Positions 1,438 through 47,006 are shown, counted from the first letter of the stretch. The stretch: 64,000 nucleotides of DNA from a virus (IMGVR_UViG_3300029705_000009), one strand, 5' to 3'. Numbers and translations: made by a program. Notes: a model not told the origin generated them from the sequence alone.

Positions 1438-1471
1438 AAAAAAAGACTACCCGGATTTAATCCAGATAGTC
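1438..1471 (-). terminator. intrinsic terminator after mrpR-like gene
   Basis: GACTATCTGGATT/AATCCGGGTAGTC hairpin followed by a U tract. Confidence 0.55.
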
Positions 1472-2365
1472 CTTGTGATCTATTATATAGCGTGTTTTAG
1501 AAATTTGACAATTATATTTCTCTTCAACTTCTTTAAAATATGGAGAATGTATATATTCTGAATCTTTCATTCCTAATTCTTTTGCTCTTTTCTTGATCAT
1601 ATGTAACATACCTGAATCAGATATGCTATTGAGCGTGATGTAAGAAGGAAGACCAAGAAAATTAATAATTCTACCGAAAGCTTGATATATATTTCTTCCC
1701 ATTTGATAATCAGACACGTCTGTTTTTACGGTATAATGATGCTTCAACACATATCCTCTATCAACCAAAGGAATACTTCTAATCGGGCCATAATATCTAT
1801 CTTCTTCGATACAGTCATCAATAATATGACGCAATATATTCGATATTTCTATTTCCCTTCCGGTACAAAGACTTAATGTATTTCCATTAACATCAGACGG
1901 CTTCAGCTTTGCTAATTCACAATAATCCTTACCGCCTATACCCTCAAATGTTCCCAACAATACATACTTGTCTTTAGGATTCGCAAGCTGCATCACCCAG
2001 TCCAAAACCATACTTTCAGTTACTATTTTTTGATTGAATACTCCTTTGTTTATAAATCCATTAAAATCTTCGTATTTAATTTCAATATAATGATTTTGAT
2101 TGTCTGCTACTAAATGCTGACTTAAACACCATTGCGTATACATTGATAAATGGCTATTAATAACATCTAATGATTTTATCGTTGGAATATTCAACATTTT
2201 GTAAAATTCTATAATCTCATATACTGTAAAGTCGTGAACATCTTTGTTATATTCAAATTCCATTTCGGAGGTTTTTTCAAACAATCTTTCCAGATATCCG
2301 TTTGGCAGAGTGGTTTCTTGATTTTTTTCATAGATATATCTTGATTTTAACTCTTCATTATACAT
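1457..2365 (-). CDS. MrpR/YopR-like phage repressor (catalytically dead tyrosine-recombinase fold)
   Basis: MYNEELK..KDVHDFT N-terminus; catalytic Arg replaced (EGIGGKD..EL); no HxxR; synteny as SPbeta yopP-Q-R. Confidence 0.8.
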   Translation of the reverse strand: MYNEELKSRYIYEKNQETTLPNGYLERLFEKTSEMEFEYNKDVHDFTVYEIIEFYKMLNIPTIKSLDVINSHLSMYTQWCLSQHLVADNQNHYIEIKYEDFNGFINKGVFNQKIVTESMVLDWVMQLANPKDKYVLLGTFEGIGGKDYCELAKLKPSDVNGNTLSLCTGREIEISNILRHIIDDCIEEDRYYGPIRSIPLVDRGYVLKHHYTVKTDVSDYQMGRNIYQAFGRIINFLGLPSYITLNSISDSGMLHMIKKRAKELGMKDSEYIHSPYFKEVEEKYNCQISKTRYIIDHKDYLD

Positions 2366-3626
2366 ATGCTTCTACCTCCTGTATTATTTTTTCAATACCA
2401 TCCACAACAACCTTTTTAGGTGTTCTTGAACGGAATTTCTTGTTATCCAACTGTTCAACTTTCTCTATTACGGCATCAATAACTTGACACATGTGTCTTT
2501 TATCTTTATCTTTGTAATAATTAAATACACACATGATTGCAGTTAACTTCTTATATGAATATGACTGTGTAATATATTTTGTATCATATTCTGTCAGCAT
2601 ATTAAAATTATCAGTTAATTCTTTTATGGCAGATATTAATACAACCTTTTCTTTTTCTTTTGAGGTATATCCTTTAAAATAGAAATAATCAATCAATCCA
2701 GACAACTCTGCAAAATTAATTATTCCCTGGTTCATACTAATTAAACCTTGTAAATTAAACTGAGAACTTCCATTTAATCTCTTTACGACGGAATTTGATG
2801 CTTTATATGAATCCATCGCATCACTATCAGTCTTAGGCATTCTCGTCTTTTGAGCTTCCTGATAAACGAATTGTCTTGCCTTATCTTCCATGAAATTAAC
2901 AATTCTCAGTTCCATAGTGTAATTAAAATCCGGATTGTTGATATTTATCCTACATGCTGCTACGTATCTGTGATATCCATCTAAAATATCAAATCCTCCT
3001 AAGGATTTAATTACTAACTCTTTTGTTTCGTCATCATAATAAAAGTCTGAGTCTATTTCTTGTGGAATGTTTAATGTAAATGGAGTAGGAATATAAATTC
3101 CATCATTGTACATTTTTGTAATTGATTTGATCGCCGTTTCGTTTATGGTAATTTTATATATCTCTTTACCACCCCTTACAACTTTTTGCATAGTTCTCTG
3201 TGCATTTTCGTTGTAAGTTATTAACTGCGCATCTCTCAATTTCATTAACATTCTAAAATCTATCTTACCAGTCCATTGATCATCTGTTACTTGAATCATT
3301 TCGAATCTTAAAGGAAATTTTATTTTATCCACATTATACTTTGAATTTTTATATCCTCTAATTTCCTGATCAGTAAAATAATCCTCAAATCTTATCCTGG
3401 TATTTGGAATGTTATTTTTAATTGAATCTAATAAACAAAATAAAATAAATTCTGACGCTTCTTGGACGGGTTTTCTTAATGCTAGATAATCAGATGTAAT
3501 GCCTTTGGGGATCTCATATGTTTCTTTTGCATATATACAAATTTGCTTGCACAACTCTGTATTAGCAGTAATTTTAAGAATCTTTTCTTCTAGATATTTC
3601 TCCAAATTTTCATTTGCTGTTAACAT
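2358..3626 (-). CDS. YopQ-like DGQHR/DndB (ParB-superfamily) protein
   Basis: YNENAQR and FDILDGYHRY motifs; lies between recombinase and MrpR-like genes. Confidence 0.75.
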   Translation of the reverse strand: MLTANENLEKYLEEKILKITANTELCKQICIYAKETYEIPKGITSDYLALRKPVQEASEFILFCLLDSIKNNIPNTRIRFEDYFTDQEIRGYKNSKYNVDKIKFPLRFEMIQVTDDQWTGKIDFRMLMKLRDAQLITYNENAQRTMQKVVRGGKEIYKITINETAIKSITKMYNDGIYIPTPFTLNIPQEIDSDFYYDDETKELVIKSLGGFDILDGYHRYVAACRININNPDFNYTMELRIVNFMEDKARQFVYQEAQKTRMPKTDSDAMDSYKASNSVVKRLNGSSQFNLQGLISMNQGIINFAELSGLIDYFYFKGYTSKEKEKVVLISAIKELTDNFNMLTEYDTKYITQSYSYKKLTAIMCVFNYYKDKDKRHMCQVIDAVIEKVEQLDNKKFRSRTPKKVVVDGIEKIIQEVEAYV

Positions 3627-3651
3627 CTTATGTCCCTTCCTTTCTGAAATG

Positions 3652-3680
3652 ATTATAGTCTTTTTTTATTATTTTGTCTA
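3652..3680 (-). promoter_or_regulatory. sigma-A promoter for yopQ-yopR-like genes
   Basis: TAGACA-17-TATAAT. Confidence 0.65.
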
Positions 3681-3722
3681 GTCTTTTTTGTCAAAATGGT
3701 GCTAAAATATTATTTCATTTAC

Positions 3723-4733
3723 TTAATCATATAATGAAGCAATTGTCGTAATAGCATCTCTTTTGTCCTGGTTAAAAATCTTCGTATACCTTTTAGTTGG
3801 TGCTGTCGTTTTATGTCCTAAAACATCTGCAACTAAATAAATATCTTTTTTTGCCTGGTACAAATTTGTGCCACATGTACTTCTTAATTTGTGTGGAGTG
3901 ATATGCTTATTTACAACAGGTTCTGTATGTTTTTTGATGATATACTCAATGGATCTAACAGTCATTCGTTTTTTCTGATTTGAAATAAATAAAGCCCTGC
4001 ATGATTCTCCGTTTAAGATTTTTTCTCTTTGCTCTAACCATAAACTAAGAAACATACAAGTCTTTTCATCAATAAAAACTTTTTTACTAATATTTCCTTT
4101 TTCAATTACTTTTATAGATTTTTCTTTTAAATTGATATCTTCTAAATTTATTTCACTTAACGCAGTAACTCTCAATCCATTAACAACAGGTATTCTAAAC
4201 AATAAATAATCTCTAAATTTCCAATTTTGTTGTTTTGCAACGGCCAAGCTATTTCCAGAACCTTTAATTATCTGATTTTCTACTAACTTTACCTCCTCCG
4301 GTGTTAGAAAGATAACATCTGTCTCTTGGATTTTAGGACGTTCTATCTTCTTATTAGAAAAAGGACTGGATTTTACATAGTCGTTTTTTACTAAAAATGA
4401 GAAAAAAGCACTTAATGAAGAATAAATACATGCTTTAGTTGCATTTGATAATTCTTTTACCTCATCTCCTTTGTTATATATATTTATTTTAGTCATATAA
4501 CGTTCAACATCAAAAGAATCAATTTTGTCAATATCAGAAATATCTAACGAATTTATATCGTTATTAGAGTAGTCCTCTAAAAATCTAATAACGTTAGTAA
4601 CATAACGAAATTTTGTCGTGTGGGATTTCTGACTTAATGAATAGTAAAATTTAATCATGTAATCCGGCATACTTGCTATTTTTTGCTGTATTTTCTTTTC
4701 CGTATCAATTTTATGCTCTAATCTTCCTTGCAT
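3723..4733 (-). CDS. tyrosine recombinase (YopP/Xer-like)
   Basis: Intact R(GLRV), K(EKGN), HxxR(PHKLR), LGH and Y(KRY). Confidence 0.92.
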   Translation of the reverse strand: MQGRLEHKIDTEKKIQQKIASMPDYMIKFYYSLSQKSHTTKFRYVTNVIRFLEDYSNNDINSLDISDIDKIDSFDVERYMTKINIYNKGDEVKELSNATKACIYSSLSAFFSFLVKNDYVKSSPFSNKKIERPKIQETDVIFLTPEEVKLVENQIIKGSGNSLAVAKQQNWKFRDYLLFRIPVVNGLRVTALSEINLEDINLKEKSIKVIEKGNISKKVFIDEKTCMFLSLWLEQREKILNGESCRALFISNQKKRMTVRSIEYIIKKHTEPVVNKHITPHKLRSTCGTNLYQAKKDIYLVADVLGHKTTAPTKRYTKIFNQDKRDAITTIASLYD

Positions 4734-8738: not shown

Positions 8739-9092
8739 TTACAATCCAATCAAGTCTTCAGCTACACTCACATCAAAGGTTTCTTCAAACCAATGCCAGA
8801 TTTCTTCTCTATGAGTTCCTGCAGAAAAATCGTTCCAATCTTCTTCGATACATTCAGTTTCCGGATCCATCGGAACATCACCAAATTCAAGCCAAAGATC
8901 TTTCACATGAAGTTCTTTGCAGTTAAGAAAACTATCATCTAATCCTCTAGAAATGATTGTTTTCATATCTTCATCACTTATGTTAAAATTCCTTTCTCTG
9001 CAATATTCCATTGCAGCATCATATTCGTTCTCCATAAACTGCTGATCATCTTTAATTTTATCAATTTCTTTTAAACGTTCTTTAAGTGACAT
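8739..9092 (-). CDS. acidic hypothetical protein
   Basis: ORF with RBS. Confidence 0.7.
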   Translation of the reverse strand: MSLKERLKEIDKIKDDQQFMENEYDAAMEYCRERNFNISDEDMKTIISRGLDDSFLNCKELHVKDLWLEFGDVPMDPETECIEEDWNDFSAGTHREEIWHWFEETFDVSVAEDLIGL

Positions 9093-9110
9093 ATTATTTT
9101 ATCTCCTTAA

Positions 9111-9305
9111 TCAAAATTTTAAATTATATGTTTTTAACATTCTACGAACCATCATTTTGTTAGGTCTTTTAGTAGCAACTACAATATCATTTCCTCTTTT
9201 ATAAATGAAATGGTCTCCATTTTGTCTTACGAATTCAAATCCATTATTAACTAATAGTCTACGGAACTCCTTTTCGTTGTAATTTTTAGTCTTGCCAATT
9301 GCCAT
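9111..9305 (-). CDS. HicA-family toxin-like protein
   Basis: EFRRLLVNNGFEFVRQNGDHFIYKR. Confidence 0.7.
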   Translation of the reverse strand: MAIGKTKNYNEKEFRRLLVNNGFEFVRQNGDHFIYKRGNDIVVATKRPNKMMVRRMLKTYNLKF

Positions 9306-14155: not shown

Positions 14156-14548
14156 CTAATGAATTTGTACTGATTTTCCATTATGAACTATTAATTCGGA
14201 ATAATCACTATCTGGATATATCAGTAACCATGATTCATCTTCTAAATACGGCGCCAACGTATCAAACATTTCAATCATAACGCCTTCCCAACCATAGCTT
14301 GCATTAAATCCGTTTTTATATACCGTAAATCCATCCTTTTCACTGATATCTACTTCTTGATTCCTCCAACCAGCTAAAAAGATTCTCATTAAATCATCAA
14401 ACGTTTCCGTTGTGATCCCTTGTTCCGCATATTTTTCCAACGAATAATTGGTCCGCTTATCATTCTTGATGTGTTCATTTAACGCCAAAATAGCACCTTT
14501 CTCATCTTTTACCTTTACCTGTAATGTTACGTTATAACACGCTCCCAT
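14156..14548 (-). CDS. hypothetical protein
   Basis: ORF with RBS. Confidence 0.7.
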   Translation of the reverse strand: MGACYNVTLQVKVKDEKGAILALNEHIKNDKRTNYSLEKYAEQGITTETFDDLMRIFLAGWRNQEVDISEKDGFTVYKNGFNASYGWEGVMIEMFDTLAPYLEDESWLLIYPDSDYSELIVHNGKSVQIH

Positions 14549-14708
14549 ATTCTCCTCCCTCTTTATTATCTAATTCAATGATTACTTTATTTGCCTTCAT
14601 CCTTCTTGCTACTTTTACAAAATCCTCTACGTTTCCGTTCAAATAATCTTTAATCTCACAAGTAATTTTTACTACTTTGTTTTTTGGATCGATTACTTTG
14701 TAATCCAT
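14532..14708 (-). CDS. hypothetical protein
   Basis: ORF with RBS. Confidence 0.55.
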   Translation of the reverse strand: MDYKVIDPKNKVVKITCEIKDYLNGNVEDFVKVARRMKANKVIIELDNKEGGEYGSVL

Positions 14709-14744
14709 GCTATTTCCTCCGTTTAAAATCACTCTTTTATGTGG

Positions 14745-14858
14745 TTATTGGTACTTATACAAGCACACAAGTTTAGTATGAATCCTCTTTCCAAAAAGAT
14801 AATATTCATTCCAACAACCAATAATATTTTTAACTTCTCGCTTTTCAAAAATCTTCAT
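14745..14858 (-). CDS. 37-aa ORF bounded by two junction sites
   Basis: MKIFEKREVKNIIGCW..YKYQ*; AAGGAGG RBS. Confidence 0.5.
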   Translation of the reverse strand: MKIFEKREVKNIIGCWNEYYLFGKRIHTKLVCLYKYQ

Positions 14859-14882
14859 AGAAACCTCCTTAAAATCGTCATT

Positions 14883-15110
14883 TTATTGTTCAAAATCAAA
14901 CTTAACTGAAAATCCTTTAATCTTCCTACTAAAATCCTTTGCATGAATTACTACTGCTCCACAATCTTCACACCATAATGCAAACTGATTTACTCCACTT
15001 CCCATATAATTTGCACCACCACGATTCATCTTTCCACCACACCAAATACATTTACATTCATTTGGTATTGTCATTCCGTTATTTACTACTGTTTTAATTT
15101 TTCCACTCAT
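14883..15110 (-). CDS. Zn-ribbon protein
   Basis: CIWCG..CEDCG. Confidence 0.65.
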   Translation of the reverse strand: MSGKIKTVVNNGMTIPNECKCIWCGGKMNRGGANYMGSGVNQFALWCEDCGAVVIHAKDFSRKIKGFSVKFDFEQ

Positions 15111-15137
15111 AATAAATCTCCCTATGAAATTATCCTT

Positions 15138-15395
15138 TTAATAGTCAATTCCCAATCTGTCCATCAACACTCTGCCAATGGATAGGCGAATATCATCATC
15201 GTTGTAATATCCTTCTTCATCCCAAGCAGAAGCACACATCACATCGTCAATTACATCGTCCATAAACATACTTTCCGTTTCTTCATTTTCGTGTTCAAGA
15301 ATATATCTTGCGTATTCGCTACTTACTGCGTTCTGCATAATCATTCTAATTTCATTCTCAATGATTTTCTTCTCTTCTTTATTCATCTTTCTCAT
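15138..15395 (-). CDS. hypothetical protein
   Basis: ORF with GGAGG RBS. Confidence 0.7.
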   Translation of the reverse strand: MRKMNKEEKKIIENEIRMIMQNAVSSEYARYILEHENEETESMFMDDVIDDVMCASAWDEEGYYNDDDIRLSIGRVLMDRLGIDY

Positions 15396-15426
15396 GCTAA
15401 ATCCTCCCTTTAAAATCGTCATTTTA

Positions 15427-15732
15427 TTAGTTAAAGCCAACCATTACAACTTTGTTGTGTCTAACCGCTTCATCAAACCAATCAATGCTGTCATCACTTG
15501 TGTATTCGTTCTGTAAATATTCTAAAGGATTTTCCATATCCATATAGTTAAATAACCAATCCTTTTCTACAATGACAATAACCTCATTAAAATCTGCTTC
15601 AATTCCGTTATCCTCATCTTCCCAATCCATAAAGCACTCACTACAAATACAAAATGCAATCAAATCTTTATGTTCTGCAAACTCTATATACTGTGTCACT
15701 CCAAGCAAAATTCTTTCTCTTACTGCGTTCAT
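15427..15732 (-). CDS. acidic hypothetical protein
   Basis: ORF with RBS. Confidence 0.7.
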   Translation of the reverse strand: MNAVRERILLGVTQYIEFAEHKDLIAFCICSECFMDWEDEDNGIEADFNEVIVIVEKDWLFNYMDMENPLEYLQNEYTSDDSIDWFDEAVRHNKVVMVGFN

Positions 15733-15762
15733 ATCAATACCTCCTATAAATTATCCTTTTAT

Positions 15763-16074
15763 TTACTCAACCATACGAGGGACTAACTCTCTGTGTTCTC
15801 TGATATACTGTTTGATTTCTGCTATTTCCTTTTTACTTAAATCGTGAGGGATATTATCATTTCCTTGTTCAGCATTTTCTATATTTCTCCAAAAAGACCA
15901 ATATGGGCATTCTTTTGTTGGAACATCAACTCCCGTCATATCCCATGTATCATCGAAGTTTCCTTTGCTGGTAGGCTCTTTATGGAAATATAACAATACT
16001 GCGTCTCCATACTCTCCGTATGGTTTATATAAAAATGTTCTTTTTTCTTTTTTCTTAAAAATATTCATACTCAA
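15763..16074 (-). CDS. hypothetical protein
   Basis: ORF with RBS. Confidence 0.65.
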   Translation of the reverse strand: MSMNIFKKKEKRTFLYKPYGEYGDAVLLYFHKEPTSKGNFDDTWDMTGVDVPTKECPYWSFWRNIENAEQGNDNIPHDLSKKEIAEIKQYIREHRELVPRMVE

Positions 16075-16096
16075 AACCTCACTTAAAATTACATTT

Positions 16097-16264
16097 TTAA
16101 TCTACTAAATCAAATCCATTGTGACAAAATCCTTCTTGGTCTGATAGCCAATCTGAAATTTCATCTTCGTCAGTCATACCTTCTGGAATTTCCATTTCTT
16201 CTGGCAATTCATATAACCATTCTAAATCTCCGTCTGTATCCCATTTAATATTTATTGCTTTCAT
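16097..16264 (-). CDS. small acidic phage protein
   Basis: MKAINIKWDTDGD..LP..ISDWLSD. Confidence 0.7.
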   Translation of the reverse strand: MKAINIKWDTDGDLEWLYELPEEMEIPEGMTDEDEISDWLSDQEGFCHNGFDLVD

Positions 16265-17931: not shown

Positions 17932-18936
17932 TTAAATTAATCCTAATTTTCTTAACTGGCCAAAAATTGCTTCTAACACCGGAATACATATACTGTTTCC
18001 AGCAAGGAAACTCACCTGCTGCTCAGTAATTCCATTTTTAATCATGTGATTGTAATCTTTATCCTTGAATCCCATTAATCGTAAATGTTCTCTGCCGGTA
18101 AGCATTCTCAATTTCCCATCATAATAAATAGCTTGTCTCGGCGCCGTTGTTAAAGTCTTACATACACCATGGCCAACTCTACCTCTTCTTGTTGTACTAC
18201 TAGGAAATTCAACATTGATCACATCATATTCGTTAACCTCTTTGTAACCAAGTTTAGTAGCTTCTCTTGCGCACAATTGTCCATCTTCCCTTACAAAGAA
18301 GATTTTCTGCTCTGCATCTCCAAGTTTGTATTTATCCCAATCAACACTCTTTTCAAGATAGTAACGAATATCTTTCTTTAAAGGCACAGGTTCAGGGAAT
18401 TCAAATTCCTTTCCATCAAGTACATCTTCAAGAATGCTGATAGTATATAAACGTTCTCTTGCTTGAGGTATTCCATAATCTGCAGCATTAAGAATTGCAT
18501 AATAATTTTTGTAACCCATCTTTTCCATTGACTCCAGATAATGATAATGATGAACACGATGATTTACTTTCTTTCCCTCTGACAGAAGATTAGGTACATT
18601 CTCCCAGAGAACAACTTTAGGTCTTGTAGGAAGTTTATGATCGATGATAGCAAGTGTTTCTTCGTAAAGAATAGATCTTCCAGTATTTACATTGTTTTTT
18701 CCATTCTTACTGAAATCGACGCAAGGACTTCCATGTATCAAAATATCTGGATTCAAGTTCCATTCTCTTACATCTTGTGGCTTATAATTAATATCAAAAA
18801 TTGAGTTATAAGCTTGTACTGCAAATGGAAGAATTTCCACATAATCAATACTCTTAATATCGTATCCCATATTTTCTAGTGCTTTTCTAGGTGCACCAAT
18901 GCCTCCAAACAACTCAACTGTTTTCAACTGTTCCAT
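17932..18936 (-). CDS. dcm: DNA (cytosine-5)-methyltransferase, orphan
   Basis: ELFGGIG, HGSPC, WENV, PQARER, GNS motifs. Confidence 0.93.
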
Positions 18937-26099: not shown

Positions 26100-26300
26100 T
26101 TAGTTAAGACCATCAAGAAATTCGTTTGCAGATTTCTCTTCCTCTTCGTCAACTAACACTTCAAAATGTATGTATCCATATCCAGCTTCGCTTGTCTCAA
26201 AGTTTATATGCATGTCTTTGAGGTATCCTTTAAATCGGACAACTGCATCTCCCTTGAGTTCTGTACTTCTCCATCTTCTTCCATTGCTTAATCTTGCCAT
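26100..26300 (-). CDS. hypothetical protein
   Basis: ORF with RBS. Confidence 0.65.
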   Translation of the reverse strand: MARLSNGRRWRSTELKGDAVVRFKGYLKDMHINFETSEAGYGYIHFEVLVDEEEEKSANEFLDGLN

Positions 26301-26302
26301 GT

Positions 26303-26548
26303 TTATTCCTCCTCTTCTCCGTTAATCTCATCAATAATCTCACTCAAATCAAGGTCTTCATCATATTGTGGGCAATTACTGATTTCCAACTCTTTGTCTT
26401 CAATGTTAAAGTTAAAGTAAATTCCGTAATCAATTCCACATGCGTTTATGCTAATTCTCCAATCCCAGATATCATTGATTCCGTTTTTTACTTTCTGAAT
26501 ACAATGTGCAAATGACTCTATACTTCTTTCAATTTCTACTGAATACAT
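26303..26548 (-). CDS. hypothetical protein
   Basis: ORF with RBS. Confidence 0.65.
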   Translation of the reverse strand: MYSVEIERSIESFAHCIQKVKNGINDIWDWRISINACGIDYGIYFNFNIEDKELEISNCPQYDEDLDLSEIIDEINGEEEE

Positions 26549-26562
26549 GATTAAATCCTCCT

Positions 26563-26778
26563 TTAAAATCCTGTTTTAAGTCCCCCTAAACAGTCTAAAG
26601 CTAATCCACTCTTTTCACCTATTCTTTCATTACATTGTGGACAATAAATAACATCAGTTCCATGGTTTAAGCATGTCATTCCCGGAATATGTTTAATATC
26701 AGAAACTTCATATTCAAATACACATTTACAAGTAGGACAAGTTTTCTGTCTTGATTTACCTCTTTCTATAATTTTCAT
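26563..26778 (-). CDS. Zn-ribbon protein
   Basis: CPTC..CPQC. Confidence 0.65.
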   Translation of the reverse strand: MKIIERGKSRQKTCPTCKCVFEYEVSDIKHIPGMTCLNHGTDVIYCPQCNERIGEKSGLALDCLGGLKTGF

Positions 26779-26795
26779 ATTGCCACCTCATAAAA

Positions 26796-26945
26796 TTATC
26801 CTTTTATTTCCTCTACTTCCCACACGTTTTTATACTGTGGGTTTAACCAAATTTCTGTTGCTACATCATTACAAGCAACATTGATAGAATAAAATTTTGG
26901 TTCTTTATTAATTAATTCAAACATTGTTACTTTGTAGTTTTTCAT
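26796..26945 (-). CDS. 49-aa ORF flanked by identical ATAAAATTATCC sites
   Basis: MKNYKVTMFELINKEP..IKG*; GGAGG RBS. Confidence 0.55.
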   Translation of the reverse strand: MKNYKVTMFELINKEPKFYSINVACNDVATEIWLNPQYKNVWEVEEIKG

Positions 26946-26964
26946 AACAAACCTCCCTATAAAA

Positions 26965-27315
26965 TTATCCGTTCATCTTATTCATTTTTGCACCAAGTTT
27001 TACCGTTTCCATTGATGCCACATGAGCAATTGTTCTGTGTGCAATGAATTCAATATCGTATGGAAGAACATCATTATATTCCTCAAAAATATTTTCCATT
27101 GCATTTTCGATTGCAGCTTCAATACACTTGGCACGAACATCAGAAATCTGACCAATTTCATTTCTTTCTAATGGTGTAACATTATTTTTCATTTTATCAC
27201 CCTTTTCATACAACCATTCTTCATAATCATCTCCGGTAACACAACCTTCCGGAACACCAATCTGTCCTCTGCTTTCAATTTCTTTAACAATATCCTCTGC
27301 AAATTTAATTTTCAT
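26965..27315 (-). CDS. hypothetical protein
   Basis: Operonic ORF. Confidence 0.6.
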   Translation of the reverse strand: MKIKFAEDIVKEIESRGQIGVPEGCVTGDDYEEWLYEKGDKMKNNVTPLERNEIGQISDVRAKCIEAAIENAMENIFEEYNDVLPYDIEFIAHRTIAHVASMETVKLGAKMNKMNG

Positions 27316-35660: not shown

Positions 35661-35891
35661 ATAATGCATGAAATGCAGATTGTGCATGAAATGCATTTAA
35701 AAAAATAAATCCATTAAATGCAAAATCTATCCGAAATAAATAATATTCAACTTCACTTCTTCTATTCTTATGTAACATTAAGTTATTCCAGTAGAGTTTA
35801 CGAAACAGAAATAAATAACCGGTTTTCCTTTAAAAAGAAAATGAAGTATAAAATGAATAATTTGCCATTAGATAAATAAAATTATATATAG

Positions 35892-41452: not shown

Positions 41453-41827
41453 ATGGATGATTATAATAAAAATCTTGAATACATTGAATCATTGAAAACA
41501 TTTATGGGTGGGAATAATGAAGATGTTCCGCTACATGGCGTGACTTTAGATGACATGAAGCATATTGTAGAAAGATGCAGAGAGTTTAATCTTCCACAAC
41601 CAGAGATCTTTCCGTGGGTTGGTGGTAATGGTGTTCAAGCTGAATGGGAATATGATTGGTATTTAGAAATTGATAGCTGCGACAAAGGAATAAGTGTTTT
41701 GTTTGTAAAAGGCAAAGACTATGACAATGCCATAAGTTGTAGATTATATGATATTGAGGATGCTTTTATGATGGTAAAAACATTTATTAATAATGTTGTA
41801 GATATTAAAGGCACAAGAAAAGAATAA
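41453..41827 (+). CDS. hypothetical protein
   Basis: GAGG RBS. Confidence 0.65.
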   Translation: MDDYNKNLEYIESLKTFMGGNNEDVPLHGVTLDDMKHIVERCREFNLPQPEIFPWVGGNGVQAEWEYDWYLEIDSCDKGISVLFVKGKDYDNAISCRLYDIEDAFMMVKTFINNVVDIKGTRKE

Positions 41828-41845
41828 GATTTTAAGAGGAAAAAC

Positions 41846-42058
41846 ATGATTTTATTAAAAGTAATTGGAATAGCGATATTTTCAAGTTTGGTAGTTGCAT
41901 TGTCGGTAATTATATTTCCTGATTTTGTTTATAATCATATAAAAAATAAAAAGGTAGAAAATTTTTTAGAACATGATTTGGTCAAGGCATATTGGATATT
42001 GCTGACTATAGTTGTTGATACATTATTAATACTGGGATTTATTAATCTTATTTGTTAA
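41846..42058 (+). CDS. membrane protein
   Basis: Two TM segments. Confidence 0.65.
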   Translation: MILLKVIGIAIFSSLVVALSVIIFPDFVYNHIKNKKVENFLEHDLVKAYWILLTIVVDTLLILGFINLIC

Positions 42059-42070
42059 CTAGGAGGCAAT

Positions 42071-42349
42071 ATGTTAATTAGAAGCCAAGATAGAAAGAAA
42101 ATTTACAATACTGATACAATGAGCAGTATTTGGATTAATCGAAATTGTATTTACATATCAGCATGTGGAGATGATACAGATTTGCTTGGATCATACTCCA
42201 CAGAAGAAAAAGCACTCAAAGTATTAGACATGATCGAAGAAAGAACCAACGAACCTATTTACATTAATGATGAAGGCGGCGGCGAATATGCGAAGTACTT
42301 CCACTCTTCTTTCCATATGCCGCAGGATGATGAGGTGGAATTAAAATGA
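42071..42349 (+). CDS. conserved phage hypothetical protein
   Basis: MLIRSQD..LGSYSTEEKALKVLDMI. Confidence 0.7.
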   Translation: MLIRSQDRKKIYNTDTMSSIWINRNCIYISACGDDTDLLGSYSTEEKALKVLDMIEERTNEPIYINDEGGGEYAKYFHSSFHMPQDDEVELK

Positions 42350-42648
42350 CAATGAAGCAGACAAGAGAACAATTTTTGTTAGCTTTAAATTCTAATGCTT
42401 ATATTGGCATGTGTACTACAGAAGACATGAAAAATGTTATCAAAGCATTAGACAAACAGATTCCAAAGAAACCGAAAGTTCAAGTAAGAGGAGTTTATAA
42501 TGATGATTCGGGCGACTGGGTGTGTGATGAAGAATGGTATATGTGTCCATCTTGCCAGATGCGGAATGAAGTATATCCAACATGGAAATTATGTCATCAT
42601 TGTGGGCAGATGTTAGACTGGCTTGAAATGAGAACATTAAAATATTGA
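42346..42648 (+). CDS. Zn-ribbon phage protein
   Basis: ALDKQIPKKP..CPSC..CHHCGQ. Confidence 0.7.
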   Translation: MTMKQTREQFLLALNSNAYIGMCTTEDMKNVIKALDKQIPKKPKVQVRGVYNDDSGDWVCDEEWYMCPSCQMRNEVYPTWKLCHHCGQMLDWLEMRTLKY

Positions 42649-42659
42649 GAGGATAAAAA

Positions 42660-42893
42660 ATGAGTATTTTTACATTTTTGATGACTATTATTATAAGCAC
42701 TGGTGTAACGGCAATATTGGGTGATATGACAAAATCTGAAGGATTGGAATTTCTTAATCCAATATGGTTGTACGAAAAATATAAAGTCAATTGGTTTGGA
42801 GCCGGATTTCTTGGCATTTTACTTACTATATTAACACTGCCATATTCGATTTTCTATTGGATCTATAAACTTTGTACAGTCGGAAGAAAATAA
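42660..42893 (+). CDS. membrane protein
   Basis: Two TM segments. Confidence 0.65.
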   Translation: MSIFTFLMTIIISTGVTAILGDMTKSEGLEFLNPIWLYEKYKVNWFGAGFLGILLTILTLPYSIFYWIYKLCTVGRK

Positions 42894-42914
42894 TATGTTT
42901 TAAGAGGTGTGGTA

Positions 42915-43070
42915 ATGAATAAATGTGACTTTTGTACAAAATCATCTCCAGATGGAAAATGTTATTGGGTTTCACAAGGAAGCCGTGAAGATGATTGTGA
43001 AAAAGCCATTCAGAGAATGATTGAAGTTTTGAAAAATATAGGTTGTAATCAAATGAAATTTAAGGAGTAA
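42915..43070 (+). CDS. 51-aa Cys-rich ORF (not in track)
   Basis: MNKCDFC..*; GAGGTG RBS. Confidence 0.55.
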   Translation: MNKCDFCTKSSPDGKCYWVSQGSREDDCEKAIQRMIEVLKNIGCNQMKFKE

Positions 43071-43073
43071 AGT

Positions 43074-43358
43074 ATGAAACCAGTATATAAATGTGACTAC
43101 TGTTCTAAGATGGGAACAGAGGAAGAAATTAGAGAACACGAGCTTACCTGTATGGATAACTATGATAGAAAAAGTTGTTATACTTGCCAACATAGGGGCA
43201 AGATAAATATGGTAAACAAGCTTGTAAAATATGAGTGTGCTAAAGAAATTGATATTCCGGAAGGAAAGATTTTTGAATTTTGCCAATCGTATGAAAGAAA
43301 AGACAAATCCAATGGTCTGTATGATGATCTTATGACTGGTCTTTTTGGAAGATTTTAA
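43074..43358 (+). CDS. Zn-finger protein
   Basis: CDYC..HELTC. Confidence 0.65.
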   Translation: MKPVYKCDYCSKMGTEEEIREHELTCMDNYDRKSCYTCQHRGKINMVNKLVKYECAKEIDIPEGKIFEFCQSYERKDKSNGLYDDLMTGLFGRF

Positions 43359-43368
43359 GAGGTGAGAT

Positions 43369-43629
43369 ATGGGTGTGGATATTTATGGTAAGCATTTTAT
43401 TTGCAAAAATCAAATGAAATTTGAAGATTTAAAGAACGGACAAGTATTTTGTTTTGTAGATGATATCTCTGAAGATTCTAGTGAGATTAAAATTTATATG
43501 CGTGGTGGTCATACAACCACAGATGGTACAGCTATGGATCTTGAAACTGGAATTATGTATTCATTTGATGAAAAAAGTTATGTAAAGATTTTAGACGTAA
43601 CACTTAATATTAGAAGCGTGATATGTTGA
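43369..43629 (+). CDS. hypothetical protein
   Basis: GAGGTG RBS. Confidence 0.65.
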   Translation: MGVDIYGKHFICKNQMKFEDLKNGQVFCFVDDISEDSSEIKIYMRGGHTTTDGTAMDLETGIMYSFDEKSYVKILDVTLNIRSVIC

Positions 43630-43654
43630 AAATAAAATTTTAAGAGGTAAACAT

Positions 43655-43984
43655 ATGGAAGATTTAATAAGAGAACTTGATTTGTTATTGAAGAAATATG
43701 GAATCTCGTTCAATGAAGCAATGAGAATTTATGAAAGAAATAAAATATGTACAAAACGATTAACTCAATGTTACGAGGATGATGAAAAAGTATGGCAGTA
43801 CTATGACAAAGAGAACAATCCTTGTGGATGTGGTAGCAATTGTTTTCACTTTGAATATGACAGAATTGACAATGTTATATATGGAGTATGCAATTGTTGT
43901 AATACAGATATTTATATAATTAAAGATGAGTATGTTGAAGAGAAATTACATACTGGAAAATGGTTGAGTGAATGCTACTTTTAA
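43655..43984 (+). CDS. hypothetical protein
   Basis: ORF with RBS. Confidence 0.65.
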   Translation: MEDLIRELDLLLKKYGISFNEAMRIYERNKICTKRLTQCYEDDEKVWQYYDKENNPCGCGSNCFHFEYDRIDNVIYGVCNCCNTDIYIIKDEYVEEKLHTGKWLSECYF

Positions 43985-43997
43985 GAGGTTGATTGTT

Positions 43998-44207
43998 ATG
44001 AAAGTTGAAGACTTAATTGTATCAGCAGAAGAAGTTGCTACTGGTAAAAGATTAATTGGATATGTATGTGGTTGTAAATCATGTCAGACAGCATGGGAAA
44101 GCGAAAAGTACGATAAGACAAGACCTCTTGGATTATTGACTTCTCCAGATGGTCAGTTTGGAAATGTAAGAGTGTATACGGATAATATGGAGTTTGTGAA
44201 CAGATAA
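43998..44207 (+). CDS. hypothetical protein
   Basis: ORF with RBS. Confidence 0.6.
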   Translation: MKVEDLIVSAEEVATGKRLIGYVCGCKSCQTAWESEKYDKTRPLGLLTSPDGQFGNVRVYTDNMEFVNR

Positions 44208-44230
44208 AACGTATTTTAAGAGGTGATTAT

Positions 44231-44449
44231 ATGGCAAAAGGCAAGCCAAGATGGTATCCGGACAAACCTCAAAACAAAAGGGGTGCATACTGTCCAAGAT
44301 ACGAAGAACATAAAAATGGAATTAGCTATTGTGAACAAGGTAATGCCAGAGATGCTTATGTGTGCAAAGGTAATCCACATAATTGTGTAAAAACAAAATA
44401 TCATAGGGCGGCAAGTAGAAGTAATAAACAGATAAACAATGATGTGTAA
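44231..44449 (+). CDS. Cys-rich basic protein
   Basis: ORF with RBS. Confidence 0.65.
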   Translation: MAKGKPRWYPDKPQNKRGAYCPRYEEHKNGISYCEQGNARDAYVCKGNPHNCVKTKYHRAASRSNKQINNDV

Positions 44450-44474
44450 AAATAAACTTTTAAGAGGTAATAAA

Positions 44475-44603
44475 ATGATCATTATCAAACCGATTGTTAG
44501 TATTATATTGTTGATTCCATATATTTTATTCTTTGGTGCGTTTAGTTTGGGTGTTGATTTCCCAGATAATACAAGTATTTATTACAATGGTTGGCTTATA
44601 TAA
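44475..44603 (+). CDS. 42-aa membrane peptide (not in track)
   Basis: MIIIKPIVSIILLIPYILFFGAFSLG..*. Confidence 0.5.
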   Translation: MIIIKPIVSIILLIPYILFFGAFSLGVDFPDNTSIYYNGWLI

Positions 44604-44631
44604 CATAAAAATTAAATTTAAGAGGTAATAA

Positions 44632-45033
44632 ATGGGTAGATATATTGAAATAGATGGTCGCAGCTACTACTCTCCTTGCAGTGATTGTAAAGATAGATGG
44701 TGTTATTCATGTGTGATCAATAAATATAAAGAGGATTTGGAATCAGAACGAGATAAACGCGGCCATGCTGAATGGCGTATTGAACAAGAACTTGAACCTC
44801 GTATCAAAGCAGAGAAAGCCAGTTATGATAGATGGGTATCTACAGATACCGGTGCCGAAGCATGCTACTGCTTCTCTTCTTTACTTGATGAACTGATTGA
44901 TTTTGTTGAAAATCCAGATAATGAAAAATATATGGACTGGGAAGATGCAGCTGGTGACTTGGAGCAGAAAATTCTTTATCTGATTAAGAATAAAGTTGAT
45001 GATGACTTGTATTGTATAGCAGATAAGAGTTAG
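44632..45033 (+). CDS. hypothetical protein
   Basis: ORF with RBS. Confidence 0.7.
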   Translation: MGRYIEIDGRSYYSPCSDCKDRWCYSCVINKYKEDLESERDKRGHAEWRIEQELEPRIKAEKASYDRWVSTDTGAEACYCFSSLLDELIDFVENPDNEKYMDWEDAAGDLEQKILYLIKNKVDDDLYCIADKS

Positions 45034-45046
45034 GAGGTGGATATAT

Positions 45047-45322
45047 ATGGAATATAGAAGTGGCCAATTGTTGTATGTGTGCAAAACAGATAGCGATTTG
45101 AGAGATGGGCTTTTCGTTCTTTACAGAGATAAATATGAGGGAGATGTGGATTTGAGTTATCACGGAAGTCCTTGGTATGAAACCTTTATTGTTTGTGAAT
45201 ATCTCGATAGTCGTGACAGAGTTGAATTTGGTGATCAGACATGGTGTTGGCGTCCTGCTAATGAGTATATTAAGACTATGCAAAACAAATTAAGAGAGAT
45301 TAAGAATATAGCTAATATATAA
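45047..45322 (+). CDS. hypothetical protein
   Basis: ORF with RBS. Confidence 0.7.
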   Translation: MEYRSGQLLYVCKTDSDLRDGLFVLYRDKYEGDVDLSYHGSPWYETFIVCEYLDSRDRVEFGDQTWCWRPANEYIKTMQNKLREIKNIANI

Positions 45323-45347
45323 AATGCTAATTATATATGCCGAAAAA

Positions 45348-45441
45348 GGGTTAACAGTAGGCGCTATCCAAACCAGTAACCCTGCGACCATAAATGGGCA
45401 ACACCCAGTGCTGTAAGAGCATGTACGCTGTTAGGGATAGC
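45348..45441 (+). ncRNA. candidate pseudoknotted RNA
   Basis: GGGTTA/TAACCC interlocked with GCTATCC/GGATAGC; inner hairpins. Confidence 0.4.
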
Positions 45442-45471
45442 ATATGAAAACACACTTTCTGGAGGTGCTTT

Positions 45472-45630
45472 ATGAAAGACAAAGAAACAATAATGAAAGC
45501 TTTATCAGCGTGTAGTGAGTTTTATTGCTGTGAGTGTCCTTATCAGTATCTTGATGATAAAGAATATAGTTTGAGATGTATTCATACTCTTATTGAAGAT
45601 GTAAATGAAATGTTAAAAGAAAGCAAATAA
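45472..45630 (+). CDS. 52-aa Cys-rich ORF (not in track)
   Basis: MKDKETIMKALSAC..CECPY..*. Confidence 0.6.
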   Translation: MKDKETIMKALSACSEFYCCECPYQYLDDKEYSLRCIHTLIEDVNEMLKESK

Positions 45631-45643
45631 AAATAAATTATAA

Positions 45644-45850
45644 GTGATGGTGATTAATATAAAAATAAAGAAATTATTGTGTAGATTTGCAAATTGGATA
45701 TTAAGACAATGCGTAGAGCCTACAATAGCGTTTGAAGAAGATTTATATATCAATGGTAAAACTTATAAATTAGTTCAAGCAACCACAGAAATGTCACCTT
45801 ATTCTCATGTGACTATTCATTTTGAAGTTATTAGTGGCAAATACAAATAG
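45644..45850 (+). CDS. hypothetical protein
   Basis: Operonic ORF. Confidence 0.55.
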   Translation: MMVINIKIKKLLCRFANWILRQCVEPTIAFEEDLYINGKTYKLVQATTEMSPYSHVTIHFEVISGKYK

Positions 45851-45868
45851 AGTTTTAAGGGGTAAATT

Positions 45869-46033
45869 ATGAAATACAGATACGAATTTGAAGGAGACGA
45901 ATATATTGTCAAAGGTTTTTGTAGTGATTGTCCACTTAGTTATGTAGATTATGACGGATATGGTGGTCACGAAATTTGTTGTGTCTTACATGCAAGATAT
46001 GATGAATGCCCATTGGTAGAAGTAACAGATTAA
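45869..46033 (+). CDS. 54-aa Cys-rich ORF flanked by AAATAGAGTTTT repeats
   Basis: MKYRYEFEGDE..CSDCPL..ECPLVEVTD*. Confidence 0.6.
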   Translation: MKYRYEFEGDEYIVKGFCSDCPLSYVDYDGYGGHEICCVLHARYDECPLVEVTD

Positions 46034-46049
46034 AAATAGAGTTTTTAAG

Positions 46050-46244
46050 GTGGGGTTAAAAATGCATATTTCAAGCAATAAACATATTGGATCTTACGCT
46101 GGTGGTACATACGAATATCTTGAAATCAAAGAATATAAAGAATGTTGCTGCTGTAGGCACTTTTCTGATAATTGGCATGAAGAACGCTTTGAGTGTTTGA
46201 ATGTTAATAGAAAAGACGATGGCGATTGTTATGAAGATTTTTAA
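46050..46244 (+). CDS. hypothetical protein
   Basis: Operonic ORF. Confidence 0.55.
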   Translation: MGLKMHISSNKHIGSYAGGTYEYLEIKEYKECCCCRHFSDNWHEERFECLNVNRKDDGDCYEDF

Positions 46245-46255
46245 GAGGTGATATT

Positions 46256-46498
46256 GTGGATGTATTAGGTAGAAAAATTGTATTAACACGCAAACCACAT
46301 ATATGTTTTGGGTGTGGTAGAGAATTTTCAAAGGGTACAAATATGGAGAGGTCTTGTGTTGTTGATGGTGGAGATATGTGGACTTGTTATCTGTGTCCGA
46401 CATGTATTGATATCGTTAGTGCAATGAGATATGATGACGAATTTGGTTACGGAGATTTAAGAGAAGAAGCATTAGAAAGAGAAAATAATAGCGAATAA
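46256..46498 (+). CDS. Zn-finger protein
   Basis: TRKPHICFGC..CPTC. Confidence 0.65.
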   Translation: MDVLGRKIVLTRKPHICFGCGREFSKGTNMERSCVVDGGDMWTCYLCPTCIDIVSAMRYDDEFGYGDLREEALERENNSE

Positions 46499-46521
46499 AA
46501 CAAACTTTTAAGAGGTGAAAA

Positions 46522-46770
46522 ATGGAAGTATCTAAGATTTATTCAATGATTTATGATAGTAAAAAATATGGCAACGATGGTTACGGTGATTACTTGGGCG
46601 AATTTAAAATAGTTAAGCAACTCAGAGAAGATGCTTATGTAGATGATTTCATTGGTGTTAATACTGAAACTGATGAAGTGTGTTTTGTGCTTTCAAGAGA
46701 GGTATGCGGATATGGTGGCGGTATTGCTTATCAGGTTATTCCCATTCCAGAGTTAACATTGAAGCAATAA
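46522..46770 (+). CDS. hypothetical protein
   Basis: ORF with RBS. Confidence 0.65.
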   Translation: MEVSKIYSMIYDSKKYGNDGYGDYLGEFKIVKQLREDAYVDDFIGVNTETDEVCFVLSREVCGYGGGIAYQVIPIPELTLKQ

Positions 46771-46799
46771 AAACAAAATTGTTAGTGGTGAGGTAAATT

Positions 46800-47006
46800 A
46801 TGAGTAGAGGTGTACTTAGAGACGGATCTAGCGTATATAAAGAAATAAGAGAAAAACGTGTTGAGGATGTAATAATTAGAGCATCTAATAAAGCAGGTAT
46901 TACTAAGAGCGATTTATCTGATGCCTTTAAAGAAAAAGGATTTTTAGGTGTTTACAATCTTGGCATGATGCATATGTATGAGTATTTGAAAGGGGAAAAA
47001 GTGTAA
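46800..47006 (+). CDS. hypothetical protein
   Basis: ORF with RBS. Confidence 0.65.
   Translation: MSRGVLRDGSSVYKEIREKRVEDVIIRASNKAGITKSDLSDAFKEKGFLGVYNLGMMHMYEYLKGEKV

Follow-up and report, generated by a model that had tools for sequence, protein, structure and literature searches.

Typed intercistronic joints in the accessory-gene array of an SPbeta-like provirus and their probable part in slot-wise gene exchange

A stretch of viral DNA of 64,000 nucleotides (the window) displays, at positions 14724–16099, a row of small unrelated open reading frames in which identical short spacers return in alternation. This raises the question of what the spacers are and how the alternation came about. 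The original prediction took the pattern as the footprint of successive cassette insertions that duplicate or propagate a site. The analysis presented here indicates that the spacers are probably standard joints between the cistrons of an accessory-gene array, which belongs to an SPbeta-like provirus of gut Clostridia, and that genes are exchanged slot by slot at these joints. The source record is an IMG/VR provirus of 153,849 bases with a G+C content of 34% and an estimated completeness of 88%. Between about 5 and 35 kb every gene is on the minus strand, and the majority are small open reading frames of no known family.

Anatomy of the joints in the window

The minus strand is the coding strand throughout positions 14724–16099. 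There are six consecutive gaps that extend from a stop codon to a ribosome site, and each has a 16-base core of the form TAAAA-N6-TTTTA. On the coding strand the stop codon is within TAAAA, this is followed by six variable bases and by TTTTA, and thereafter by a GGAGG-type ribosome site and an ATG. The distance from TTTTA to the ribosome site and ATG is 8–24 bases and the intergenic gaps are 25–35 bases long. Thus each core is found at a co-directional gene junction, where its left arm coincides with a stop codon and a ribosome site follows. The six-base centres on the plus strand read TCACTC, TCGTCA, TTATCC, TCGTCA, TTATCC and TTACAT, the order originally predicted; in the order of transcription these are joint types E, B, A, B, A and C.

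The type E joint (16084–16099; this and all joints described below for this stretch are on the minus strand) has the core TAAAA-ATGTAA-TTTTA and precedes a B joint also in contigs L016, L041, L042 and G010. The two copies of type A, at positions 14870–14885 and 15411–15426, have the same sequence with the core TAAAA-TGACGA-TTTTA. The two copies of type B are worn. The copy at 15125–15140 has a single mismatch in its right arm (a TTTCA arm) and the copy at 15747–15761 has a right arm with a one-base deletion. Both are non-canonical when compared with the B joint at 26791–26806 (minus strand) and with the form found in other phages. The type C joint (14724–14744) has the core TAAAA-GAGTGA-TTTTA together with a conserved CCACA extension, and displays stop codons in all three reading frames.

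The longer repeats reported at first were recovered as described. A 19-mer is present in exactly two copies, at 14869–14887 and 15410–15428, where dinucleotide shuffles average 0.21 copies with 3 mismatches allowed. A 14-mer is exact at 15127–15140 and 15748–15761 and has an additional third copy at 26793–26806. In this genome the A centre is therefore present twice and the B centre three times.

The third copy of B is part of a second small array on the minus strand at window positions 26300–26980, about 11 kb from the first. This mini-array consists of the canonical B joint (26791–26806), a related B variant at approximately 26962 and an untyped joint with the centre CAGGA. A further small-gene array is found on the plus strand at 41800–46800, where an A-rich stretch and TTTTAAGAGGT are present before each gene. 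The joints of the plus-strand array are worn types F, G and H, which in other contigs belong to a ladder I-H-F-G.

Exactly one open reading frame separates successive sites of the first array, as had been noticed from the sequence, and the chain lengths are 37, 75, 85, 101 and 101 aa. With the flanking genes the lengths in sequence are 55, 101, 101, 85, 75, 37 and 58 aa. The E-to-B slot contains a gene of 101 aa (15763–16068, minus strand as are all of these genes), and the first B-to-A slot another of 101 aa (15427–15732). An unusual A-to-B slot follows with a gene of 85 aa (15138–15395). The second B-to-A slot has a gene of 75 aa (14883–15110), the product of which is Cys-rich and shows a sub-threshold match to DUF7479. 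The A-to-C slot contains the 37 aa open reading frame (14745–14858), whose coding signal is weak, and beyond C there is a gene of 58 aa of no known family (14532–14708). Open reading frames were called with a simple script, and "unrelated" is used here for sequences without blastp or blastn similarity. The five intervening open reading frames, when compared pairwise by blastp, show no resemblance (best E = 1.2), and ten cargo proteins compared with PHROGs and Pfam gave nothing above threshold. The cargo gene at 15427–15732 has homologues of 52–54% identity in four other contigs, in which the joints are lacking and the order of genes differs.

Searches for common expression signals gave no association with the joints. 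Promoter-like sites number 26, where 38 are expected in shuffled sequences, and none are tied to joints; on the coding strand no terminator-like sites were found. TAAAAT was considered as a −10 box and rejected, as a conserved −35 sequence is absent and there is no room for a leader. A mini-open reading frame starting from the ATG inside the A centre was also rejected, since the copies differ in its frame with respect to the next gene.

Joint types and cargo in other gut phages and in Spbetavirus

The nearest contigs to this provirus are seven that carry the neighboring C5 cytosine DNA methylase gene (PF00145; window positions 17932–18936, minus strand) at 78–83% identity. The genes flanking it are almost all unshared, thus the methylase gene appears as a conserved island in a mosaic region. 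A blastn search with the region and with single joints against an annotated phage collection gave nothing, or matches at chance level only.

The cores themselves are found more widely. When every open reading frame was mapped with its upstream core, the cores were detected in over 20 further IMG/VR phage contigs, arranged in a fixed ladder E-B-A-C(-D). A 17-mer of the A joint is exact in 28 IMG/VR stretches, in at least 17 of which it is directly upstream of the SD sequence and ATG of differing genes, and a 20-mer of the C joint (core plus CCACA extension) is exact in 15; A and C were the search seeds and their counts are inflated, while adjacency and the co-occurrence of B, D and E are unaffected. 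The C 20-mer is also present in three fecal MAGs, assigned to Lachnospiraceae, Clostridia and Acutalibacteraceae, which places the hosts among gut Clostridia.

The same centres in the same relative order thus enclose different genes in different phages. Clustering by blastp gives 17 unrelated cargo families for the A-to-C slot, eight for B-to-A, five for E-to-B and four for C-to-D; within the A-to-C cargoes the best E value is 7e-4. The 26 distinct A instances form 325 pairs, in none of which is either flank shared, and with type C neither flank is shared in 189 of 190 pairs. In alignments anchored on the core, identity ends on the left at TAA and on the right at TTTTA, and the ribosome-site region varies. 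Most commonly the upstream open reading frame ends at the TAA of the core. Other upstream frames end at a stop codon inside the centre or, in the case of C, at a TAA located 8 bases before the core. Where the stop codon is within the centre, several unrelated upstream proteins have a C-terminal tail encoded by the joint, i.e. NHIKE. Homologous cargo shared between contigs begins or ends at a joint (L043 and L044; L073 and L111).

The phages that carry these joints are distant from the phage of the window. Proteins shared with the phage of the window are 27–64% identical, and the recombinase homologues 28–33%. Identical sequences of 16–20 bases in carriers so distant show that the joints are not neutral leftovers. 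The second ladder, I-H-F-G, shows the same behavior and matches the joints found in worn form in the plus-strand arm. The complete genomes G005, G007 and G010 have one copy of each ladder apiece; joint types repeated within a single contig are found, outside the window, in L016, L031 and L042. In L031 a tRNA-like sequence with an apparent CAT anticodon, as judged by eye, is located directly 3′ of the joint array, at approximately 9050–9130 on the array strand (the reverse complement of the stored locus).

With respect to breakpoints, typed joints in the IMG/VR loci (16%) do not differ from core-less junctions (16.6%), a comparison that is uninformative here because typed joints are usually flanked on both sides by unrelated DNA and there are then no alignable block ends. 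The comparison was extended to cultured SPbeta-like phages. SPbeta has 34 TAAAA-N6-TTTTA sites, compared with 2 in each of three control arrangements, and five other Spbetavirus genomes have 30–43 sites compared with 1–3 in reversed-pattern controls. In these phages the arms reach about 11 bases, giving a 28-base palindrome with the consensus TYWRRA-TAAAA-N6-TTTTA-WNYARA. Most of the sites are at co-directional junctions of small genes, e.g. on both flanks of the gene mtbP, which encodes a methyltransferase. The centres follow a collinear order in all six genomes and each of them is present once per genome, which does not hold for the genome of the window.

The six Spbetavirus genomes have 1858 homology-block ends, of which 285 are within 10 bases of a joint, where 18.5 are expected. 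Joint-bearing junctions are block ends in 79 of 102 cases (77%) and joint-less junctions in 132 of 578 (23%), an odds ratio of 11.6, although the genome pairs are related and the p-value is thereby overstated. Two or more unrelated contents are found in 19 of the 42 shared slots. Presence and absence of open reading frames bounded precisely by the sites, which the original prediction proposed as its check, is thus seen in the cultured phages, where cassettes end exactly at joints.

The Gad locus, with its anti-Gabija genes, provides an example. In SPbetaL4, Gad1 and three further genes are located between joints with the centres CAGAGA and ACGATA. In SPbetaL6, Gad2 occupies the slot between the same two joints. 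SPbeta does not have the Gad slot, and the boundary of this difference is exactly at the left arm. The locus has been described as a shared "dedicated locus" of SPbeta-like phages in the report on the discovery of Gad1 and Gad2 (bioRxiv 10.1101/2023.05.01.538930). The dedicated anti-Gabija locus appears to be the same phenomenon at one slot, with unrelated gad1 and gad2 genes. The portion of that report available here does not mention the bounding 16-base joints (CAGAGA, ACGATA) or the 30–43 such sites per genome. Full-text literature searching found no description of the TAAAA-N6-TTTTA joint motif.

The prediction of cassette insertion is therefore sustained in one part and revised in another. 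Relatives hold different single genes between the same sites, with precise edges, as expected of cassette boundaries. A and B are not the product of insertions that duplicate a site; these are standard joint types that recur across phages in the fixed order E-B-A-C.

Recombination at the joints and alternative explanations

A joint consists of a 16-base core in which 5-base inverted arms, TAAAA and TTTTA, flank a 6-base centre. The left arm provides the stop codon of the upstream gene, and the downstream gene brings its own ribosome site after the right arm. The centres are of discrete types, and the order of these in the array is E, B, A, C, D. In the proposed mechanism, different phages would recombine at joints of matching type, with replacement of the gene or genes between two joints. 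Accessory genes may in this way be swapped slot by slot with gene order and expression signals undisturbed. The centre would limit exchange to matching slots, such that cargo turns over while order and expression persist. It appears that recombination at the joints, rather than later selection, produces the pattern. Two routes would fit, short-homology recombination and site-specific recombination by the Xer-like enzyme or by host Xer.

Several properties of the joints argue against this proposal. The conserved arm is 5 bases in the gut phages, which is short for a recombinase site, and 16 bases is short for homologous recombination. RecT, ERF and Sak4-type single-strand annealing proteins were not recognized in the 88%-complete record. 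In addition the arms coincide with the stop codon and with a U-rich stretch before the ribosome site, thus their conservation could be partly translational.

A narrower form of the proposal is that the joints are sites of a dedicated recombinase, either a phage enzyme of the yopP type that is Xer-like or the host Xer, which cuts at the borders of arm and centre. A requirement for matching centres would then make this a natural recombinase-mediated cassette exchange. This sub-case is possible but on balance doubtful. The candidate enzyme is a Xer-like, yopP-like tyrosine recombinase encoded at 3723–4733 on the minus strand (PF00589, 91 bits). Its best relative of solved structure is XerD (1a0p, E = 2.5e-15), and the positions of the catalytic R, HxxR, H and Y align. 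A gene that looks catalytically intact is present in the same genome arm as the array, and homologues with 28–33% identity are present in seven of the 10 array-bearing contigs that were searched whole. The gene yopP is conserved in the SPbeta group, and no function is assigned to it in the publications examined here.

The gene neighborhood of the recombinase also has an SPbeta character. At window positions 1457–4733 on the minus strand there are consecutively the Xer-like recombinase, a 422 aa protein of no family and an MrpR-like protein (1457–2365, minus strand) with the PF22822 N-terminal domain, which is a marker of the SPbeta-like yopP-yopQ-mrpR module. The trio resembles this lysogeny module of SPbeta, found here in a provirus of gut Clostridia.

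The architecture of the sites is also in keeping with a dedicated recombinase. The arms are inverted around an asymmetric 6-base centre, and the Spbetavirus form of 11-6-11, a total of 28 bases, is like dif. At the Gad locus the cassette indel ends precisely on the border of arm and centre, and no annealing-type recombinase was recognized in this genome. However the outer arms are unconserved in the gut phages, and the homologues are about 30% identical though the cores are identical. In the complete 319-kb genome behind L009, an A/C-like array is present but no recombinase homologue. As a tentative extension, SPbeta-like phages from Bacillus to gut Clostridia may share a dedicated form of cassette exchange, in which a yopP-type recombinase acts on palindromic joints and the centres serve as addresses. 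If this is true, co-resident phages would trade anti-defence and accessory genes only between matching slots, and centres repeated within a genome, as here, would allow programmed excision of two-gene circles.

It is unlikely that the cores are expression signals only, i.e. an intercistronic stop and re-start or a site for a translational regulator or RNase, with mosaic boundaries coinciding merely because those of phages fall at gene ends. In favor of this reading, the core always stands after a stop codon and before a ribosome site, it is oriented with transcription, and its left arm is used as the stop codon; in both genome arms TTTTAAGAGGT commonly precedes the start of small genes. The distance from core to start is however variable (8–24 bases, and longer in SPbeta). 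Predicted RNA hairpins of the joints have energies of −0.1 to −2.5 kcal/mol, which is no better than shuffled sequences, and there is no Rfam match. Breakpoints are enriched at gene junctions generally, but in Spbetavirus the joint-bearing junctions break at 77% and the others at 23%. An expression signal also leaves unexplained why discrete and identical centres are found in the same order across phages of about 30% protein identity with unrelated flanks.

A regulatory role of another type, that the cores are operators of an MrpR-like repressor (the SPBRE of SPbeta-like phages) which silences the arrays in the lysogen, is very improbable. MrpR is a protein of the tyrosine-recombinase fold, and the intergenic element to which it binds is a repeated one (PMC10516654). 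An MrpR-like protein is encoded in this genome, as described above, and a joint is nearby in three of the 10 MrpR-bound promoter regions of SPbeta. The SPBRE is a motif of 15 bases in the promoter regions that MrpR binds. The motif common to all ten of these promoter regions, derived here, is AAAWAATATGTATAT, which is unlike the joints. In addition SPbeta has 34 joints compared with ten MrpR peaks, and most of the joints are inside operons and not at promoters.

With respect to the position of joints and SPBREs in SPbeta (NC_001884), the aimR promoter region at 76171–76217 has a joint with the centre TTGGAA 17 bases upstream of an SPBRE. Joints are also found near the SPBREs of yorE and yosX, and the two elements may interact.

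A separate 12-base motif, TAAATAAAAT(T/A)A, usually with a G before it, is present in 15 copies in the genome of the window. The window copies on the minus strand are at positions 925, 6278, 11943, 19189, 22561 and 30841, and those on the plus strand at 35873, 35974, 37482, 37970, 52167, 54869, 59823 and 62904. The motif is always oriented with local transcription and is mostly found just 5′ of the start of a gene. Its appearance is that of a promoter or operator specific to the phage, and it is possibly the counterpart of the SPBRE in this phage.

Chance similarity among short AT-rich intergenic stretches, which the 34% G+C content of the genome and the simple A/T runs of the arms might suggest, is refuted by the counts, i.e. 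shuffle expectations are far lower than the numbers observed, dozens of contigs have exact 17- and 20-mers in the same context and Spbetavirus shows a 15-fold excess over reversed-pattern controls.

The doubled slot pair and comparison with known systems

Slot-wise exchange at typed joints also offers an interpretation of the alternation. Since A and B are standard types in a fixed order, the E-B-A-B-A-C order of the window is most readily understood as two copies of the B-to-A slot pair, i.e. one extra B-A (or A-B) unit. In the contigs compared, an A joint is followed by 23 cargo families, and the A-to-B transition is found in this window only. The doubling most likely originated by ectopic exchange between joints. 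One simple route would be an ectopic A x E exchange that places an E-B-A-C tail behind an E-B-A head. The A and E types share the bases on either side of the centre. The type repeats in L016, L031 and L042 indicate that partial duplication of ladders does occur in gut phages, in contrast to Spbetavirus. The direct repeats in the window (the A copies are 541 bases apart and the B copies about 620) should permit deletion or excision of the two intervening genes.

The joints have properties in common with several known systems. The dif and pdif modules of Acinetobacter plasmids are moved by XerC/XerD. The joints resemble these sites in having inverted arms around a 6-base centre (28 bases in Spbetavirus, 11-6-11) and in bounding small modules, and the Xer-like recombinase is here phage-encoded. 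In contrast, pdif sites alternate in orientation and match the host dif arms, whereas the typed joints are all co-oriented with transcription, and the joints in the window and the gut phages conserve only the inner 5 bases of each arm.

As in integrons, single-gene cassettes are found in tandem with imperfect palindromes between them, and a tyrosine recombinase is encoded in the element. However the attC sites of integrons are 57–141 bases long with paired R and L boxes, whereas the conserved cores are 16–24 bases here. The platform of IntI, attI and Pc beside the array appears to be absent; no promoter platform was seen, and the only tyrosine recombinases in the genome are the Xer-like one, about 10 kb downstream of the array, and one at the provirus end. 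Each cassette here also has its own ribosome site, and the joint types keep their order and do not travel with the cassette.

Conserved linker or boundary sequences were reportedly proposed for the modules of lambdoid phages in the modular theory of Susskind and Botstein. The likeness is in short shared sequences at gene boundaries that act as crossover points. The lambdoid examples are sporadic, whereas the joints are regular, typed and palindromic.

The PeSLs of T4-type phages (promoter-early stem-loops) consist of a sigma-70 promoter and a terminator hairpin (PMC2839356, PMC4122927). Both PeSLs and joints are short conserved intergenic motifs between small non-essential open reading frames in plastic regions, and single-gene insertions, deletions and replacements occur through recombination between PeSL copies; at the joints, indels and replacements are likewise bounded by the motif. 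The PeSL copies are all alike, whereas the joints have discrete centre types in a fixed order. The joints are also only 16 bases long, are located inside operons and have neither a promoter nor a stable hairpin.

The accessory regions of phages are the home of most unknown anti-defence genes. A joint that is regular and addressable would account for dedicated loci of the Gad1/Gad2 kind, and it would provide a search rule for alternative cargo, i.e. to inspect the slot between the same pair of joints in phages that are related. SPbeta and phi3T in B. subtilis would then offer a direct test of the joint mechanism. More generally, the joints bear on the question of how accessory regions stay variable and yet remain orderly and expressed.
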